In this document: positions 897 through 48,362 of the stretch, piece after piece
Layout of the letters: each line of letters starts with the position of its first letter
How positions within the stretch are numbered: the first letter of the stretch is position 1
DNA from: an uncultured Holophagales bacterium
GTDB taxonomy: Bacteria > Acidobacteriota > Thermoanaerobaculia > UBA2201
Assembly (NCBI GenBank): GCA_964603505.1
Contig: CAZRVT010000002.1
Location: forward strand, 10,312-74,311
Direction of reading: 5' to 3'
Length of the DNA: 64,000 bases
The notes under the pieces: generated by a model
Told to the model about the DNA's origin: nothing
The model's database searches: none
Seen by the model: only the letters and a program-made list of their open reading frames with translations
Program-made: the position numbers and the translations under genes

Positions 897-1430
897 ATGC
901 GAAACGACCTCATTCAACTGATCCCCGAGTTCGACCTGATCCAGGACCGGGAGCTGCGGGAGAAGACCCTCCAATGCTGGGAAGAGGGAATGCGGCTGGG
1001 GGGCTGGAAGCCCGAGGATCTGCGGCGCATGCCCTTCACCCTCCTTTACGACCCCTGTCCGGCCTCCATGCTGGAGCACACCCGGGGCAACGTCCTCGTC
1101 TGCGTGGCCGCCCACGACGCGCTGAAGAAGGTGTACGCCGGCGACCTGAAGATCGACCGCGACATCCTCGTCGCCGGGGCGCTCCTGCACGACGTGGGGA
1201 AGCTGCTCGAGATGGAAGAGAAGGACGGAAAGTTCGTCAAGAGCCGCTCCGGGAAACTCCTGCGGCACCCCGTTTCCGGCGCCTGCCTGGCCGCCCGCTT
1301 CGGCCTCCCCGAGCCCATCCTCCACATCATCGCCAACCACTCCAAGGAGGGCGACGGGATGCGGCGGACCAACGAGGGCGTGCTCCTCCACCACGCCGAC
1401 TTCACCAACTTCGAGATCTTTCAGAAATGA
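897..1430 (+). CDS. HD-domain phosphohydrolase
   Basis: His...HD...LLHDVGK...D motifs typical of HD superfamily metal-dependent phosphohydrolases. Confidence 0.75.
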   Translation: MRNDLIQLIPEFDLIQDRELREKTLQCWEEGMRLGGWKPEDLRRMPFTLLYDPCPASMLEHTRGNVLVCVAAHDALKKVYAGDLKIDRDILVAGALLHDVGKLLEMEEKDGKFVKSRSGKLLRHPVSGACLAARFGLPEPILHIIANHSKEGDGMRRTNEGVLLHHADFTNFEIFQK

Positions 1431-1464
1431 CCCGGCAACATATCCAGAAGCCGATATTGTGCCA

Positions 1465-1511
1465 GGCGGGAGAGGGCTTTCCCTCTCCCGCCAAGCGGAG
1501 TAAATCCGCTT
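1465..1511 (+). terminator. Very stable 12-bp GC hairpin (GGCGGGAGAGGG-cttt-CCCTCTCCCGCC) followed by a second 7-bp hairpin; possible terminator or leader structure between the HD gene and leuC; no U-tract
   Basis: Perfect inverted repeat 1465-1476/1481-1492, then AAGCGGA-gtaaa-TCCGCTT at 1493-1511. Confidence 0.3.
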
Positions 1512-1600
1512 GGTTCCACCCTCACCCCAACCCGGCGCTTCACCGCGCTCGGCTTGTCGCCGAACCTCCTGCGAGGTCCGGCCGCCAAAGGGATTAGCCC

Positions 1601-2848
1601 ATGGGCCAGACCTTCGTCCAAAAAGTGCTGGCGAGATACGCCGGCAAGAAAAGCGTGGAAGTGGGGGAGATCGTCACCGTCGCCCCCGACCACGTCCTCT
1701 CCCACGACAACTCCGCCGCCATCGCCAAGACCTTCGCCAAGATCGGCAAGCCGCAGGTGAAGGACCCCGCCCAGCCGGTGATCGTCCTCGACCACTGCGT
1801 CCCGGCGGCCGACAGCAAGTACGCCACCAACCACAAGGAGATCCGCGCGTTCGTCGCCGCGCAGGGGATCCGGCACTTCTTCGACATCAACTCCGGTGTC
1901 TGCCACCAGGTGTTCATGGAGCAGGGGTTCGCCGCCCCGGGGCGCCTCCTCCTGGGCTCCGACTCCCACACCACCACCTACGGGGCCGTGGGGGCCTTCG
2001 CCGCCGGCATCGGGCGGAGCGAGGCCGCCGCCCTCTGGGCCACCGGCCAGATGTGGCTGATGGTCCCGGAGACGATGCGGCTGGTGCTCAAGGGTAAACT
2101 GCCGGCCGACTGCTCCGCCAAGGATGTGGTCCTGTTCATCCTCGGCAAGATCGGAGCCGACGGCGCCCTCTACAAATCGGTCGAGTTCGCCGGACCGGTG
2201 GTGGAGGCGATGGAGGTGGACGACCGCATGGTCCTGACGAACATGGCCGCCGAGATGGGGGCCAAGAACGGCTATGTCCTTCCGGACGAGAAAACGAGGG
2301 CCTGGCTGAAGGGGCGGGTGCGCGGCCGGTACCAGGAAGTCCTTTCCGACCCCGACGCCGCCTATGCCGAAACGCTGGAATGGGACCTTTCCGATCTCCG
2401 GCCGCAGATCGCCTGCCCCCACTTCGTGGACAACGTCAAGGACGCCGCCGAGCTGCGCGGGACGCCGGTCCAGCAGGTGGTGGTGGGGACCTGCACCAAC
2501 GGCCGCCTGCGCGACCTTCACGAGGCCGCCGCGGTGCTGAAGGGGCGGAAAGTGGCCCGCGGCACGCGCCTGCTTGTTTTCCCGGCCTCCATGGCCATCA
2601 CCAAGCAGGCCCTGGCCGACGGCACGCTGGGGACGCTCCTCGATGCCGGCGCCGTCGTGATGAACCCCAACTGCGGGCCGTGCCTGGGGGCTCACGAGGG
2701 GGCGCTGGCGCCGGGGGAGACCTGCGTCTCCACCTCCAACCGCAATTTCAAGGGGCGGATGGGGTGCAACGAGAGCGCCATTTACCTGGCCAGCCCGCGG
2801 ACGGCCGCCATCACGGCGCTGAAAGGAGTCCTCGATGACACGCTATAA
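1601..2848 (+). CDS. leuC: 3-isopropylmalate dehydratase / homoaconitase large subunit (short archaeal-type LeuC/HACN aconitase-family)
   Basis: Aconitase-family motifs ([39 protein letters not shown]); ~415 aa small-type LeuC; followed by an overlapping LeuD. Confidence 0.85.
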
Positions 2849-3320
2849 GGGGCGCGTCTTCAAATACGGCGACAACGTCAACACCGACGTCATCTTCCCC
2901 GGCAAGTACACCTACACGGTGACCGACCGCAGGGAGATGGCCAAGCACGCCCTAGAGGACCTGGACCCCGAGTTCATCCAGACGGTGAAGCCCGGGGACA
3001 TCATCGTCGCGGGGAAGAATTTCGGCTGCGGCTCCTCCCGCGAGCAGGCCGTCACTTGCGTCAAGGAGGCCGGGGTGGCGGTGGTGATCGCCGTTTCGTT
3101 CGCCCGCATCTACTTCCGCAACTGCATCAACGAGGGGCTCCCCGCCCTGGTGTGCCCCGCGGCGGTGGAAGCGATCCAAAACGGGGAAAGCGTGGAGGTG
3201 GACCTGGCCGCGGGAACGATCGCCACCGCCAAGGGCACCTTCGCCTTCCCGCCGTTCCCGCCCGCCGTGCAGGCCATCCTGTCGGCGGGGGGATTGATTC
3301 CATACCTTAAATCGATATGA
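2835..3320 (+). CDS. leuD: 3-isopropylmalate dehydratase small subunit
   Basis: Aconitase C-terminal swivel-domain pattern ([27 protein letters not shown]); 14-nt overlap with leuC. Confidence 0.85.
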
Positions 3321-3475: not shown

Positions 3476-4825
3476 ATGACTAATCGATTTCTACGATTCA
3501 TCCTGGCTGCCCTGTTGCTGACGGGTCTGGCCTGCGGGCCCAAGGCGACCAGCACGGAGGAGTCGAAAAAGGCCCTCGACGCCGCCTACGAGAAGGCCAA
3601 CGCCGCCGTGGACGCCGCCAAGACGCCCCGGGAGAAAGCGGCCGCCTGCGCCGACTTCCTGAAGGCGCACCCCGAGTCCGAGCACACGATGGACATGCTC
3701 GAGACCCTCCTCTATTACCAGCTGGAGGAAGCCCGGGACGCCGCCGGGGCTCAACCCATCGTAGAGGGCCTCCTGGCCGGGGTCAAGGATCCGGAGCTGC
3801 TCCGCAAGATCAAGGTCGCCGGTCTCGCCATGTGGGCCAAGCTGGGGGACCAGGACATGGTGGCCGCGCGCGTGCGCGAGGTCTCCGTGGGGCCGCTCTC
3901 CTTCGACCAGCGGATGGCCATCGCCAACGCGGGAATGGAGACGGGGTTGTGGCCGATGGCCGAAGAGTATGCCGCCGGCGCGCTGATGGTGGCCACCCCC
4001 GAGGCCTTCAAGGCCGACCACCCGGGGCGGGAGTTCGCCCCCGACCGGATCGAACGCTACGTCAACCTCCGCAAGGCGGAGTGCCTGGCCGCCGCCGCGT
4101 GGGCCAGGGCCAACCTGGGCCGCTTCGAGCAGGCCTTCGCCACCTTCGAGCAAGCGCGCCCCTACACGAATTTCTCCTATCTGGGTTCCTCGGAGACCCC
4201 CTTCAACCTCTGGCTGGGCCGCACCCTGCTGATGCAGAAGGAATACGACAAGGCCTTCGAGACCCTCACCCCCGACGCCGTATTCGGCGGCACGCCGGAG
4301 GCGCTGGCGGCTTTGAAGGAGGTCTTCGTCGCCCAGACCGGCTCGGAGTTCGGGTTCGAGTCCAAGCTCGAGGAACTGCGCAACAAGCTGGCCAAAGCGG
4401 TGGTGGATTTCACCCTCCCCGACTACGCCGGCCGGGAAGTCACTTACGGCAAACAGAAGGAAGGCAAGGTGATGCTCCTGGCCTTCTGGTTCCCCACCTG
4501 AGGGGGATGCCGCGTGGAGTTGCCACGCCTCCAGCCGCTGTACGAGCAGTACAAGGACAAGGGGTTCGACATCATCGCCATCGAAGCGCGCCGCGACACC
4601 GACAACGCCAAGAAGCTGATCGCCGACCACAAGCTCACCTACACCTTCCTGGAAAACGGGGAGAACGACAAGGAAGTGGTCAGAAAGCTCTTTTCGGTCC
4701 GCGTCTTCCCCACCTCCTTCGTAATCGGGAAGGACAACAAGGTCTACTACTACCACCTGGGGTTCGAGGACGGGCAGGAAAAGGTCCTGGAAGAGGAGAT
4801 CAAGGTCCTGCTGGCGAAATCGTAG
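3476..4825 (+). CDS. Lipoprotein thiol:disulfide oxidoreductase (TlpA/ResA-like thioredoxin domain) with selenocysteine: in-frame TGA at 4499-4501 read as Sec, redox motif T-U-G-G-C; N-terminal ~300-aa helical lipoprotein domain
   Basis: Signal peptide plus lipobox LTGLAC. The sequence around the TGA, ...GKVMLLAFWFPT-TGA-GGCRVELPRLQPLYEQYKDKGF..., aligns residue for residue with the canonical TlpA FW-x-x-W-C-G-P-C-R-x-E-x-P-x-L-x-x-LY-x-x-YKDKGF. The frame continues uninterrupted (the track splits it into 3476..4501 and 4514..4825); a SECIS-like hairpin lies just downstream of the UGA. Confidence 0.7.
4512..4528 (+). promoter_or_regulatory. Candidate bacterial SECIS hairpin (GCGUGG-AGUUG-CCACGC) starting 11 nt after the UGA
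   Basis: 6-bp perfect stem with a 5-nt apical loop containing GUU, at the distance from the UGA expected for SelB-dependent recoding. Confidence 0.45.
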
Positions 4826-4853: not shown

Positions 4854-4880
4854 GGGCGGGCCGTGGCGGCCCGCCCGTTT
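4854..4880 (+). terminator. Rho-independent terminator after the selenoprotein gene (GGGCGGGCC-gtggc-GGCCCGCCC then GUUUGCU)
   Basis: 9-bp GC stem directly downstream of the stop at 4825, followed by a T-rich run. Confidence 0.55.
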
Positions 4881-4895
4881 GCTATAATACAAGTA

Positions 4896-5324
4896 ATGGC
4901 CGCGCATCGCTCTATGTTGTTCTTGTTATGGCTGGTGCTTATTGCATCCAATGTTCACCCTTGCTCTTGTATCCCTACATCGGGGGGATTAGCAGGGATG
5001 ATTGAAGACGTAGATTCTGTCTTTCTTGGTCGAGTGATCTCAACAAATGTGGCGAGTGAAGAAGGATCCTCCTACATTGCGCATTTCCAAGTAATCAGAG
5101 TTTGGAAAGGTGCGAAGCAAGAAGAGAATTCTGTAATGACAGCCAATATTGGATCTTTATGTGGTGTTGATTTCATCCCTGGCCGCACATATCTTGTATT
5201 TTCAAGGAAGGGCGGGACCAACTGGTGCTTAGGGACAAAATCAGCCGATACAGCAAATAAGGAATTGAAACTGTTGGGTGATCCAATTTGGCAAAATCCC
5301 AAGGTTCGCGATTGGCATCCTTAA
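4896..5324 (+). CDS. Small secreted Cys-Ser-Cys protein resembling the TIMP / netrin-like (NTR) N-terminal domain; encoded in a low-GC islet
   Basis: Hydrophobic signal sequence, then the mature-like N-terminus CSCIP. Four Cys at relative positions ~1, 3, ~70 and ~98, consistent with TIMP N-domain disulfides C1-C70 and C3-C99. Conserved-looking blocks YIAHFQVIRVWKG and SLCGVDF...YLVF. TATAAT at 4883-4888 lies 7 nt upstream of ATG 4896; composition is clearly AT-richer than the flanks. Confidence 0.5.
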   Translation: MAAHRSMLFLLWLVLIASNVHPCSCIPTSGGLAGMIEDVDSVFLGRVISTNVASEEGSSYIAHFQVIRVWKGAKQEENSVMTANIGSLCGVDFIPGRTYLVFSRKGGTNWCLGTKSADTANKELKLLGDPIWQNPKVRDWHP

Positions 5325-7201: not shown

Positions 7202-7350
7202 GAGGGCTTGATGCTACCGTATATTTGAAGGGTCATCCGAAAGGGTACGGATGAGAGCATTTAAATCAAGTTTGCCCTCAAGGACTGCAACGGCCATGGA
7301 GGCGATCTCGCCTCGTCTGGAAGGTGAGTATCGGTCCGCAGGCATGAGGG

Positions 7351-8376: not shown

Positions 8377-10330
8377 GGGGCTCCTTCCGGCAGTCGATGA
8401 CGAGGGCGGCGGCCGGCCCGGTGAACATGGGGAGGATGACGACCCCCTGCTGGATGCGCTCGAAGCCGTCCTCGCTCAGCGAGACGGTGCGCAGGGGGAA
8501 GACGCGCAGGGGAACGGCCTTCCCCCAGGCCAGCGCCATGACCACCCCGTGCACCGTGTCGATCACCTCGACGCCGCCGGCCTCGGCGGCAAGAAGCTGG
8601 TCGAGGGGGTACTCGCGCGGCGAACCGGGGAGGCGGAGGAACCCCTCGGCGGGGCTGGCGGCCATCTCGACGGACCAGACGGAAGAGGGGGCTTCGTTCC
8701 ACGCCACTCTCGCCGTCAAGCAACGGCCGTCGAGGGTGAGGGTCTTGGTCAGCGTCCATCCGTCGCGCTCGCTCCGAGCGGTCAGGGTGTTTCCGGCCGC
8801 CTCGACGGCGGTCTCCTCCCGGACGCCCTTCCACACGTCGAGGTGGGCCGCCTCGTTGAGCGACTCGGGGACGCGGGAGAACTGATGGACGATGAGCCCC
8901 TTTCGCGGATGCGGGTCCTCCCGGACATCCTCCGTGAACTCCTCGGGGATGGCGTGGGCCATGTCGTGGATCGAGGCGTGGTCGCCGCCGCCGGCCTGCG
9001 CCGCCAGCTCGTGGTAGAGCTCGACGCGCCGGCGGCAGGTGCCGAGGAGGTTCAGCGGCGGGGTGCGGGTGTCCAGCTCCTCCAGGATGCCTCCGCAGGC
9101 CGGGCTGAAGAAGGCCTGCAACTCGGCGGTGCGGGCCCGCCAGCCGCAGGATGTGGGCTCCCATCCGGAGGGAGGCAGGGCCGCTTCGGCGGCGACGATG
9201 CGGGAAAAGATCTCCCGCTTGAGGAAGGGGAGGTAGAGGCCGCCGAAAATCCCGTGCCAGTAGGCGCAGTTGCATTGCGACTTGAGGAGGTCCTCATAGC
9301 CGGGGTCGCCGGGCGCCAGCGCGTTGGACGCCAGGACCATCCTCCGATACATCCATCGGGCCTCTTCATACTTGTCGAAGAACATCCGCCAGTAGCCGCC
9401 GCGGATAAACGGCTTCACCCGGTCGGCGTCCGGCCGGCGCTTCGCCTCCTCGATCAGGTGGTGGTAGGCCCGGCCCGCCTTCACGGGCAACGCCCACTCG
9501 CCCAGCTCCATGTAGGAAAGGGTGGGCATGTGGAGGGTGCCCCGGCTGGGGGTCTCGCGCAGCGCCTCGCTTACGGTGACGGTGCGGACCCATTCCGCGG
9601 CGGCAAGGTGCTCGAAGAAGCGCTCCAGCCACCCCTGCCCGAACACCCAGTCCCAGGTCTTGGGCCAGGTGCCGAACTTCTCCCCGTCGTCCACCATCGT
9701 CAGGAGGATGCCGGGGTGGGCCTCGGCCCGCTCCTGCAGGTGGGTGAACACCTCCTCCACGGGGGCGAAGGGGATGAGGTAGCGCAGTTTCTCGCTGATG
9801 GGGAACACCTCCACCTCGTGGTCCAGGTGGTCGGTGGTGAAGTGGCCGTGCACCTCGTCGGGCATCTTGCCGGAGGCGAAAAAGTGGCTATCGTCCACGA
9901 AGACCGCCCGGATGCCCGCGGGGGCGAGGACGGCGGGCAGTTGGGGCTCCCACACCCGCTCCGTCAGCCACAACGCGGAAGGGCGCCGGCCGAAGGTGCG
10001 CTCCAGCGTCTGGTTCATGAGGTCGAGCTGGGCCCGCTGGTCTCGCTCGGGCAGGACCGCCAGGATGGGCTCGTAGTAGCCCCCGCCCACCATCTCCACC
10101 TGTCCCCGGTCCGACAGGCGCCGGAGGAGGTCGATGAACTCGGGGTGGCGCTCGAAGATCCAGTCCAGGAGGCATCCCGAAAAGTGGGCCGAGCATTTCA
10201 CCCTGGGGTGGCGGCCCAGGAGCTCGAAGAAGGGTAGGTACGACTTCTGGTACGCCTTCTCGAAGACGAACCCGAAGTTGCCGATGGGCTGGTGGCAGTG
10301 GACTCCGAACAGGAACCTCAGACGCTCCAT
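8369..10330 (-). CDS. Glycoside hydrolase family 57 alpha-glucan enzyme (alpha-amylase / 4-alpha-glucanotransferase type)
   Basis: GH57 N-terminal pattern (FLFGVHCHQP, HFSGCLLDW, EMVGGGYYEPIL, WLTERVWEP); start moved to MERLRFLF inside the longer ORF. Confidence 0.8.
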   Translation of the reverse strand: MERLRFLFGVHCHQPIGNFGFVFEKAYQKSYLPFFELLGRHPRVKCSAHFSGCLLDWIFERHPEFIDLLRRLSDRGQVEMVGGGYYEPILAVLPERDQRAQLDLMNQTLERTFGRRPSALWLTERVWEPQLPAVLAPAGIRAVFVDDSHFFASGKMPDEVHGHFTTDHLDHEVEVFPISEKLRYLIPFAPVEEVFTHLQERAEAHPGILLTMVDDGEKFGTWPKTWDWVFGQGWLERFFEHLAAAEWVRTVTVSEALRETPSRGTLHMPTLSYMELGEWALPVKAGRAYHHLIEEAKRRPDADRVKPFIRGGYWRMFFDKYEEARWMYRRMVLASNALAPGDPGYEDLLKSQCNCAYWHGIFGGLYLPFLKREIFSRIVAAEAALPPSGWEPTSCGWRARTAELQAFFSPACGGILEELDTRTPPLNLLGTCRRRVELYHELAAQAGGGDHASIHDMAHAIPEEFTEDVREDPHPRKGLIVHQFSRVPESLNEAAHLDVWKGVREETAVEAAGNTLTARSERDGWTLTKTLTLDGRCLTARVAWNEAPSSVWSVEMAASPAEGFLRLPGSPREYPLDQLLAAEAGGVEVIDTVHGVVMALAWGKAVPLRVFPLRTVSLSEDGFERIQQGVVILPMFTGPAAALVIDCRKEPHV

Positions 10331-46744: not shown

Positions 46745-47614
46745 CTATTGGGAGGCTTTTAATTTCTTCTTTGTTTTCTGATCGTCTTGGGTGATCCCCT
46801 CTTTCTCGATTCGCTCAATTATAGAGTGAAGAAAAGAAATCAGCGATTCTTTGTCGATTCCTTCCTTTTTAAACTTTAATTTTATTTCGATTGGATGATC
46901 GGATGACTTCGCTTTAAATAAAGCAAAATCCGTCGCTCTAGAGTTCTCTTTGCGCATTCTTCTTATCACTTCCCTACCTTTGCCCTCCATAATTGCGTCG
47001 ATTAATTCGCGCATTTTCACTAAGTCGGGCGATTTTGCTATTTCAAGGAGCATCGATTTAGCGCTTATGTCGGCATGCCGACAGAGACTCTTAATCTCGT
47101 CGGGCATCGAAGCAATTGCAAGGATTTCGGTAATGGTAGATCTTTTTTTCCCGATCTTCTGAGAAATCATTTCATGCGTATAGCCGTATTTTTCTTGAAG
47201 AACTTGATATCCCTGAGCTTCCTCAAAGGGATCAAGTTCCTGGCGCTGGAGATTCTCTACAAGAGCGACTTCCAAACTTTGAGCGTCGTTTTCCACGGGT
47301 ATCTCGATGCACGGAAGATGACTCAATCCGCAGGCCAATGCAGCGTGATAGCGCCGTTCACCAGCAATGATTTTGCATTTGCCGTCTTCGAGGGGCTGAA
47401 CAAGAAGAGGCTCTAATACCCCATAATTGTGAATGGATTGAATCAATCCCTCCAGGTCGCCGAGATTCTTTCTTGGCTGATCGGGATTGACGACGATCGC
47501 TTCAATCGGGATCATCTTCCCAAGCGAATGATCGTCCCGGCTGAACAGGGTGTCGATAAAATGTGGCGAATGACGCATTTTTTTATCGTCTGGAAGTCCC
47601 CTTTTTTTAGACAC
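46745..47614 (-). CDS. parB: Chromosome/plasmid partitioning protein ParB (Spo0J-like)
   Basis: ParB/Srx N-domain (IVVNPDQPR..., GERRYHAA) and HTH region; 8-nt overlap with parA; markedly lower GC than the genome background. Confidence 0.8.
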   Translation of the reverse strand: MSKKRGLPDDKKMRHSPHFIDTLFSRDDHSLGKMIPIEAIVVNPDQPRKNLGDLEGLIQSIHNYGVLEPLLVQPLEDGKCKIIAGERRYHAALACGLSHLPCIEIPVENDAQSLEVALVENLQRQELDPFEEAQGYQVLQEKYGYTHEMISQKIGKKRSTITEILAIASMPDEIKSLCRHADISAKSMLLEIAKSPDLVKMRELIDAIMEGKGREVIRRMRKENSRATDFALFKAKSSDHPIEIKLKFKKEGIDKESLISFLHSIIERIEKEGITQDDQKTKKKLKASQ

Positions 47615-48362
47615 GGCTCAGCACCTCTTCTGTTAATTGATAATATTCAAGGGCTCCACGGGAGCTTGGCGCGAAGGAGAAGATGTCTTCTTTATAGGCC
47701 GGCGCCTCTTCGAGGCGGACATTTTTGTGGATGATTGTTTTGAACAACTTGGCCCCAAAGGTCTTGTTGATCTGCTGGTGAATGTCTCGGGAGAGAATCG
47801 TGCGGCCATCGTATATGGTTAATAGTACACCGAGGATTTGGAGGGAGGGGTTCACCCGTTTCTTGACTTTGTCGATGGTTTCCACGAGATCGTCGGTCCC
47901 TTCCAAAGCAAAATACGAGGATTGAATGGGCACTAAGACATGGGTGGAAGCGACCATGCAGTTAACGGTCAGAATTCCAAGGGTGGGAGGCGTATCGATT
48001 ACAATATATTGGTATTCACCCACGAGGGGCTGAAGAGCGTCTTTAAGGCAAAAATGGGCCTCCAATTCGCCCGCGAGTGCGTTCTCTAACTTGGCCAAAG
48101 CAATGGCGGAAGGTGCAATATCTAGATGCTCGGTGCGTGTATGCTGGATAATGTCACGGATCCTGCAACCTCCGGGCACAAGGGCGTCGTAGATGTTTCG
48201 ACTTCCGGGCTCTGGTCGAATAAAAGAAATCGTCGCATTGGCTTGAGGGTCCATGTCGACGAGCAGGGTGCGAATGCCCTTGCGGGCCAATGCGGCGGAG
48301 AGATTGATTGCTGTGGTCGTTTTCCCCACGCCCCCTTTTTGATTGGCGACCGAAATGATCAT
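47607..48362 (-). CDS. parA: ParA/Soj-family partitioning ATPase
   Basis: Deviant Walker A KGGVGKTTTAINL, MIISVANQKGG N-terminus, Walker B IVIDTPP. Confidence 0.85.
   Translation of the reverse strand: MIISVANQKGGVGKTTTAINLSAALARKGIRTLLVDMDPQANATISFIRPEPGSRNIYDALVPGGCRIRDIIQHTRTEHLDIAPSAIALAKLENALAGELEAHFCLKDALQPLVGEYQYIVIDTPPTLGILTVNCMVASTHVLVPIQSSYFALEGTDDLVETIDKVKKRVNPSLQILGVLLTIYDGRTILSRDIHQQINKTFGAKLFKTIIHKNVRLEEAPAYKEDIFSFAPSSRGALEYYQLTEEVLSRV

Follow-up and report, generated by a model that had tools for sequence, protein, structure and literature searches.

A near-invariant 17-nucleotide hairpin as the probable SECIS element of a split selenoprotein gene in Holophagales

We analysed a stretch of 64,000 nucleotides (nt) from an uncultured Holophagales bacterium (GenBank assembly GCA_964603505.1, contig CAZRVT010000002.1, positions 10,312–74,311 of the forward strand; hereafter the window) and focused on a short hairpin that follows an in-frame UGA and that an initial annotation had proposed as a bacterial selenocysteine insertion sequence (SECIS). 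An open reading frame (ORF) at 3476–4501 on the forward strand terminates at TGA 4499–4501, and the frame then stays open for 107 codons, down to a TAG at 4823–4825. The two parts make up a single selenoprotein gene of 449 codons that has been split in two by gene callers. The hairpin, the 17-mer GCGUGGAGUUGCCACGC at 4512–4528, consists of six Watson–Crick pairs closing a five-nt loop. The perfect stem, the GUU-containing loop and the coordinates given in the initial annotation proved exact, and so did its start 11 nt after the UGA, 4512 being the 11th base past A4501 and the spacer itself measuring 10 nt. As had also been claimed, the hairpin lies inside the coding sequence (CDS): codons 4511–4528 read R-V-E-L-P-R in the frame of ORF 3476–4501, which is open to 4825. 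The features of the locus are as follows, with counts referring to the orthologue collection described below.

3476–4825 (+): complete selenoprotein CDS, 449 codons including the UGA; frame open through the TGA, and the same frame in 97/97 orthologous loci
3533–3535 (+): codon of Cys20, which is probably the lipidated Cys of a lipoprotein signal peptide (…LLLTGLAC-G…), invariant in 9 orthologues
4394–4792 (+): thioredoxin-fold (TlpA/ResA/DsbE-like) domain with active site FWFPT-U-GG-C, from Pfam and the nearest solved structures
4499–4501 (+): in-frame UGA, putative selenocysteine (Sec) codon; TGA in 97/97 orthologous loci, aligned with Cys in the homologue P0010 and in PDB homologues
4502–4511 (+): spacer of 10 nt (Gly-Gly-Cys codons and the first Arg base, with the resolving Cys UGC at 4508–4510); length invariant in a gap-free alignment
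4512–4517 (+): 5′ arm GCGUGG of the probable SECIS, from folding and alignment
4518–4522 (+): apical loop AGUUG; AGUU invariant in 80/80 distinct sequences
4523–4528 (+): 3′ arm CCACGC of the probable SECIS; every stem cell pairs, with compensatory changes at three pairs
4505–4536 (+): possible lower helix, 4505–4510 with 4531–4536; weak, the window forming 4/6 pairs
4514–4825 (+): “103-aa AhpC/TSA-like ORF” from GTG 4514, an annotation artefact of the UGA being read as a stop

The predicted product starts with a signal peptide and lipobox, continues with a TPR-like domain of ~300 amino acids (aa), to which TPR models gave sub-threshold matches only, and ends in a C-terminal thioredoxin fold of the TlpA/ResA type. 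Residues 307–439 match Pfam AhpC-TSA (2.9e-16; 60.0 bits against a gathering cut-off of 26), Redoxin (56.6 against 26.6 bits) and Thioredoxin_8 (46.4 against 27 bits) as one domain spanning the TGA. In the local peptide, ...VMLLAFWFPT-U-GGC-RVELPRLQPLYEQYKDKG, U takes the first Cys position of a CxxC motif. The closest solved structures, 2l5o (FWFPSCPGC), 3gl3 (DsbE) and 4nmu (ResA), align the first Cys of CxxC to the UGA, and in Cys homologues and TlpA/ResA-type structures this is the N-terminal, nucleophilic Cys. With the UGA on a catalytic Cys position and the coding sequence conserved on both sides of it, the gene shows the Sec/Cys pairing used as a criterion for selenoproteins. The product is probably an extracytoplasmic TlpA/ResA-like thiol-disulfide oxidoreductase, probably anchored as a lipoprotein, judging from the lipobox-like sequence context of Cys20.

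A protein search returned nine relatives (34–100% identity), each ending at ...FWFPT, and their DNA was recovered. Another 88 loci came from reference genomes and metagenomes, where they were picked up with the peptide patterns DFTLPDY, LLAFWF and KADxPGREF; because these lie upstream of the site, the choice of orthologues was independent of the hairpin. The set comprises 97 loci with 80 distinct sequences, and protein identity goes down to ~30%. The genome matches within Acidobacteriota were to Holophagales UBA2201 at 74% identity and to many Thermoanaerobaculia and Sulfomarinibacteraceae at ~35%, while the few orthologues from outside the phylum belonged to Gemmatimonadota, Krumholzibacteriia and Glassbacteria. 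In 97/97 site-containing loci the codon after ...FWFPT is TGA and the frame runs on into the thioredoxin fold without an indel; all 97 are Sec forms, with no Cys-type orthologue among them. The initial annotation had made its proposal depend on conservation of the stem, and the stem is present in all 80 distinct sequences, 63 of which, across phyla, carry the identical 17-mer.

The compensatory changes that the initial annotation had proposed as a test in orthologues were found at three of the six stem pairs. In a gap-free alignment of the 80 distinct 66-nt segments (A2), RNAalifold recovered the same 6-bp stem, standard pairs occupied 480/480 stem cells and 13 cells showed two-sided changes; none of 500 shuffles matched this combination of pairing and two-sided changes, and controls slid along the alignment did not come near either. 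The first pair, 4512–4528, changes from G–C to U–A in one sequence, the second, 4513–4527, from C–G to U–A in four, and the fourth, 4515–4525, from U–A to C–G in eight, all without a broken or intermediate state. One stem pair additionally goes from G–C to G–U in two sequences. The U–A to C–G switch replaces Val GUG by Ala GCG and is always accompanied by a synonymous change of the opposite Pro codon from CCA to CCG. Parsimony on an approximate neighbour-joining protein tree places ~7 independent switches of this kind, at least four of them in clearly separate lineages; examples are L070 against its sister L071, L048, L050, L059 and several sequences inside the window’s own clade. L050 has three pairs altered together (UUGCGG/CCGCAA) and keeps all six. 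The fifth loop base varies (G in 71, A in 7, U and C in 1 each of the distinct sequences), and the distance from UGA to hairpin is fixed to the nucleotide in 97/97 loci. The hairpin structure is maintained by selection at the RNA level.

The same constraint is visible in codon use, which we compared between the site and the remainder of the same genes. With codons numbered from the UGA, the frequencies within the hairpin and gene-wide were:

Arg +4: CGC in 76/79; gene-wide 41%
Val +5: GUG in 72/72; gene-wide 37%
Glu +6: GAG in 80/80; gene-wide 70%
Leu +7: UUG/UUA in 78/78; gene-wide 8% (UUG alone 7%)
Pro +8: CCA in 72/80, the other 8 being the CCG compensations; gene-wide 6%
Arg +9: CGC in 76/76; gene-wide 41%

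Synonymous codons vary freely at −8 to −6, −1, +1 to +3 and +10 to +14. As codons +4 to +9 are frozen and their flanks free, the RNA constraint maps to 4511–4528, that is, to the 17-nt hairpin. The Gly, Gly and Cys of the spacer are kept as amino acids (Cys in 80/80) and their synonymous sites vary (GGC/GGG/GGA/GGT; TGC in 63, TGT in 17), from which it follows that the stretch between UGA and hairpin is translated in frame and unconstrained as RNA. The Cys homologue P0010 (WCGPCRVELP, 28% identity over the domain) encodes the corresponding residues by CGC GUG GAG CUG CCG AUC and has no hairpin; a search of the collected DNA for Cys-type paralogues to serve as negative controls gave L099 only. 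Upstream of the UGA, the Pro codon at −2 (4493–4495) is CCC in 75/80 distinct orthologues against 44% gene-wide, next to a free Thr codon at −1 (ACG in 36, ACC in 27, ACT in 17). The preference for CCC may reflect an influence of the upstream context on recoding at the UGA.

We consider it very likely that the hairpin is a minimal-type, 17-nt bacterial SECIS that directs Sec insertion at UGA 4499–4501 of the 449-codon gene. With the UGA in the A site, the 10-nt spacer would bring the hairpin to the mRNA entrance of the ribosome. SelB, the presumed binding partner, would there bind the apical GG-AGUU-N-CC through its C-terminal winged-helix domain as SelB-GTP-Sec-tRNA(Sec), with G4519 and U4520 exposed as the proposed contact by analogy with the G/U loop bases of the bSECIS consensus (PMC13188914), and would compete with RF2 in delivering the Sec-tRNA. 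The ribosome would then melt the hairpin and read R-V-E-L-P-R, and the residue inserted would be Sec rather than another, giving a product with a U-G-G-C selenenylsulfide redox centre. The mechanism is a known one and this is an ordinary example of it in a little-studied bacterial group, leaving the current view of the mechanism unchanged.

Spacing and loop content are as the initial annotation had expected of a bacterial SECIS. The bSECISearch consensus (Zhang & Gladyshev 2005), in the summary given by Fig. 2A of PMC13188914 and its legend, places a stem-loop within the coding sequence just 3′ of the UGA, as is found here, with a loop of 3–9 nt, an upper stem of 4–16 bp, 16–37 nt between UGA and loop, a G as first or second loop base, mostly with G or U after it, and a minimum free energy of at most −7.5 kcal/mol. 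The window hairpin falls within all of these limits, having a loop of 5 nt with G at its second position and then U, a stem of 6 bp and a minimum free energy of −9.0 kcal/mol. It differs from the consensus in that no lower helix is demonstrably needed and in the unusual invariance of its primary sequence. In Escherichia coli fdhF the minimal SECIS is likewise an upper stem-loop of 17 nt, GGUUGCAGGUCUGCACC (PMC11431864; sequence from PMC10945757). Both elements carry G-U in the loop, start about one helical turn (10–11 nt) past the UGA and are translated, whereas the window has a five-nt loop, AGUUG, in place of GGUC and lacks the long lower helix that extends from the UGA in fdhF. The hairpin would work like the fdhF SECIS without being its homologue in sequence or structure. 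The spacing of the E. coli minimal element was reportedly put at 11 nt by Liu and co-workers in 1998.

We made a covariance model solely from 72 orthologues outside the window’s clade, whose protein identities to the window, where measured, were at most 44%. It scored 62.8 bits (E = 9e-14) at 4499–4539, and the runner-up in the 64 kb scored 14.8 bits. The score shows homology and uniqueness and is no independent family test. Within the 690 kb of collected DNA, a TGA followed by a hairpin with an AGUUN loop inside a long ORF occurred only at the 97 orthologous sites. In the window, a scan of read-through and of GC content at third codon positions, a regular-expression scan and the covariance model revealed no other recoded gene or SECIS-like hairpin. 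Tandem GTTTTGA repeats in intergenic DNA 3′ of the orthologous gene (L015 ~7265–7300; L054 ~8690–8730) appeared as false positives of the hairpin scan.

Several observations weigh against a SECIS. Of the RNA fold that the initial annotation had called for, only the core stood out. In a window of ~65% GC, the 17-mer alone was unusually stable for its composition (−9.0 kcal/mol, z = −3.66, with 0/200 shuffles as stable), but the 42-nt fold of 4499–4540 was no stabler than its dinucleotide shuffles (−15.6 kcal/mol, z = −0.22), and neither was the wider, 47-nt region 4499–4545 (z = +0.34). With Rfam 15, no SECIS family was matched in 4300–4750 at E ≤ 10 or in the whole window at the gathering score; the scans gave only chance matches to h2cR and Pxr, and no tRNA-Sec. 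No one model can cover the diversity of bacterial SECIS elements (PMC12013277, PMC13188914), and for that reason we did not count the missing match as a refutation. The distance from UGA to loop, 16 nt (4502–4517), stands at the lower bound of the bSECISearch range. Neither the window stem nor any of the 80 sequences shows the U bulge that the fdhF element has in its 5′ arm, and with a spacer of 10 nt against 11 in fdhF the loop G-U sits 2 nt nearer the UGA. The negative control, P0010, is a single sequence, and the sequence conservation is partly protein-driven, as R-x-E-[LM]-P doubles as a protein motif of the TlpA family.

The last of these observations is that no selA, selB, selD or tRNA-Sec was found in ~70 kb of this genome, made up of the window, which is part of JGI contig Ga0394875_0000199, and the 6.5 kb upstream of it, nor in ~690 kb of orthologous flanks. 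For this search ARAGORN was applied to the window and to 50 loci and Pfam to ~50 window ORFs, and the SelD and SelB sequences of E. coli served as tblastn queries against all the collected DNA. Selenocysteine goes unmentioned in a study of Sulfomarinibacter (PMC8528874).

The near-invariance of the hairpin is remarkable in that 63 of the 80 distinct sequences share an identical 17-mer in lineages of several phyla whose proteins are only ~30–35% identical. We therefore weighed whether it is more than an ordinary SECIS, in one of three versions that, even taken together, we hold to be unlikely. The recoding signal and its peptide motif could have spread as a cassette by horizontal transfer and be read by a divergent SelB. 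The site could instead be a selenium-responsive switch between a truncated TPR lipoprotein of 341 aa and the full-length oxidoreductase, for which a tie to the arfB gene described below could exist. Lastly, the hairpin might be used with a non-canonical tRNA of the allo-tRNA or selC* kind.

That last version borders on an alternative that we rate slightly lower still, namely that the conserved hairpin aids recoding of, or pausing at, the UGA without being a SelB/Sec element, either as a generic read-through stimulator or as a SECIS that serves Cys insertion by a tRNA-Sec-like tRNA-Cys (selC*) or an acidobacterial allo-tRNA acting as opal suppressor. The comparative data show selection on an RNA structure and not the identity of the inserted residue, no Sec machinery turned up in the DNA searched, and tRNA-Sec-like suppressor tRNAs have been described, as allo-tRNAs in Acidobacteria and as selC* tRNA-Cys in other anaerobes (PMC5389517). 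A simple stability element, however, would need neither an invariant AGUU loop nor a spacer fixed to the nucleotide in 97/97 loci, and the geometry and the loop G-U fit the SelB-type consensus as summarised in the figure cited above (PMC13188914). Moreover, UxxC in a thioredoxin fold is the commonest bacterial selenoprotein site (PMC1794560), and Acidobacteria are documented Sec users (Table 2 of PMC1794560 and Table 2 of PMC12013277).

Much less probable is that the UGA is a true stop, followed by a restart at GTG 4514, with a TPR-like lipoprotein of 341 aa and a thioredoxin-fold fragment of 103 aa as separate products and the hairpin as a coupling or regulatory structure. This is how gene callers annotate the locus: public calls (JGI, ENA, Logan) split the gene into a “TPR repeat/hypothetical protein” of 341–343 aa and an AhpC/TSA fragment of 100–103 aa, for the window as well as for L001–L010, L100 and L101, with the fragment starting at whichever GTG or TTG lies inside the hairpin. 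In the window’s clade there is also a purine-rich, Shine–Dalgarno-like run, GAGGGGGA, at 4500–4507, 6 nt before GTG 4514. GTG 4514 is, however, a Val codon inside the stem that becomes GCG, no start codon, in 8/80 distinct sequences, and the Shine–Dalgarno-like run is missing in most clades, which have GGCGGC or CCCUCA. The fragment would lack the first β-strand and the catalytic residue, and no orthologue has a frame shift or a spacer between the two parts. The Gly-Gly-Cys codons at +1 to +3 lie upstream of the restart and are conserved as protein; as they are translated in frame, a restart at GTG 4514 is excluded.

Equally improbable is a chance hairpin in GC-rich coding DNA that is conserved through the peptide RVELPR and codon bias. 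In its favour, a comparable hairpin follows ~1% of the TGA triplets of the window, the wider fold does not exceed shuffles in stability and Cys-type TlpA homologues keep R-x-E-[LM]-P too. Against it, the codons that are frozen are rare (UUG 7% and CCA 6% gene-wide), the opposite of codon bias, Val changes to Ala always together with the synonymous CCA to CCG on ~7 separate occasions, L050 alters three pairs at once and keeps six, and the Cys homologue has the same peptide and no hairpin. The ~1% comes from a count of perfect 6-bp hairpins with a G in the first two loop positions that start 8–12 nt downstream of a TGA, of which there were 8 for 730 triplets on the forward strand and 3 for 598 on the reverse strand (11/1,328 in total); loosening the spacing to that of the consensus raises the count to 53. 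The window sequence by itself is weak evidence for a SECIS, which agrees with the poor specificity that SECIS pattern searches are known to have in GC-rich genomes (PMC12013277).

Helices outside the 17-mer were not accepted as parts of the SECIS element. The lower helix, 4505–4510 with 4531–4536, has ~81% of its cells paired, with one position unpaired in 43/80, unconstrained codons and 4/6 pairs in the window; the register that RNAfold gives for L013 was also weighed, with the same outcome. In L055, L056 and L058, of the Gemmatimonadota/Glassbacteria type, the Gly-Gly of the spacer is replaced by Pro-Ser and the 3′ side of the hairpin shows partly complementary changes, U–A and C–G taking the place of G–C and G–C (columns 4–12 with 33–41 of alignment A3), a hint of a role for a lower helix in some lineages, though not in general. 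An upstream helix suggested by RNAalifold, 4488–4490 with 4509–4511, lies in columns fixed by Trp and Cys codons and was not evaluable.

As to the protein family, the TlpA/cd02966 and AhpC-TSA types of thioredoxin-fold selenoprotein with UxxC are well established (table in PMC13188914; PMC1794560). The window family resembles them in having Sec at the first position of UxxC, as a Cys-to-Sec variant of a thiol oxidoreductase, and differs by its additional TPR-like domain of ~300 aa, its lipoprotein-type signal and the motif FWFPT-U-GGC; it may equal, or nest in, one of the known families (reference sequences include MGB1650493.1). No NCBIfam model reached its cut-off for the 449-codon product (ResA, 67 bits against 170). 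The curated selenoprotein model NF041054 (ResA-like WAxxUGC motif-containing protein, WAxxUGC_long) shares the ResA-like fold, the active-site Sec and a long N-terminal extension, but gave 29.9 bits against a cut-off of 300 and has UGC spacing where the window has UGGC, and the product is thus not a member. A literature search on the motif FWFPTUGGC returned nothing relevant.

The annotation of the locus should be corrected by merging 3476–4501 and 4514–4825 into one Sec-containing CDS, 3476–4825. Members of this TlpA-like family, which is probably extracytoplasmic and consists of Sec forms only, are widespread among the Holophagae and Thermoanaerobaculia, including Sulfomarinibacteraceae, of sediments and wetlands. 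The element is a clean natural case of a minimal, bulge-free SECIS of 17 nt with repeated compensation and could benchmark SECIS and selenoprotein predictors, a useful service as the bacterial ones do poorly in GC-rich genomes. As a compact cassette, the hairpin may be of use in engineering too.

Among the neighbouring genes is one of the ArfB/YaeJ ribosome-rescue type, which 50 of 73 sufficiently long loci carry no more than 1.5 kb downstream of the selenoprotein gene; it shares the strand of that gene in 44 of them and lies on the other strand in 6. The protein has ~140 aa and contains ...SGGPGGQNVNKVETKV..., with a GGQ motif and a basic C-terminal tail; examples among L012–L097 are L024:7361–7783, L041:7466–7888 and L015:7762–8184, and JGI lists PF00472 RF-1 downstream of P0008. 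The ArfB-type gene is absent from the window and from its Holophagales clade. The window has in the corresponding place, directly past the selenoprotein gene, an ORF of 153 aa at 4863–5324 (+) within a low-GC island (49–57% against ~65%); its product begins with a hydrophobic stretch, carries ...HPCSCIP... after it and matched nothing in Pfam at E ≤ 1. This ORF may be a recent insertion.

Synteny among Holophagales (L005:2496–5004, L009:1–1944, L100:7422–9845) covers, directly upstream of the selenoprotein gene, an HD-domain protein and the large and small subunits of an aconitase-family enzyme (897–3320 (+) in the window) and, downstream, two EamA transporters and a GalT-like gene. Farther along the window, a parB–parA pair at 46745–48362 (−), encoding ParB_N/HTH_ParB and a ParA-type AAA_31 ATPase, is surrounded by the housekeeping genes lptF/G, pheS/T, infC, lysS, bamA and purA. 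The window is a piece of ordinary chromosome, possibly close to the origin.

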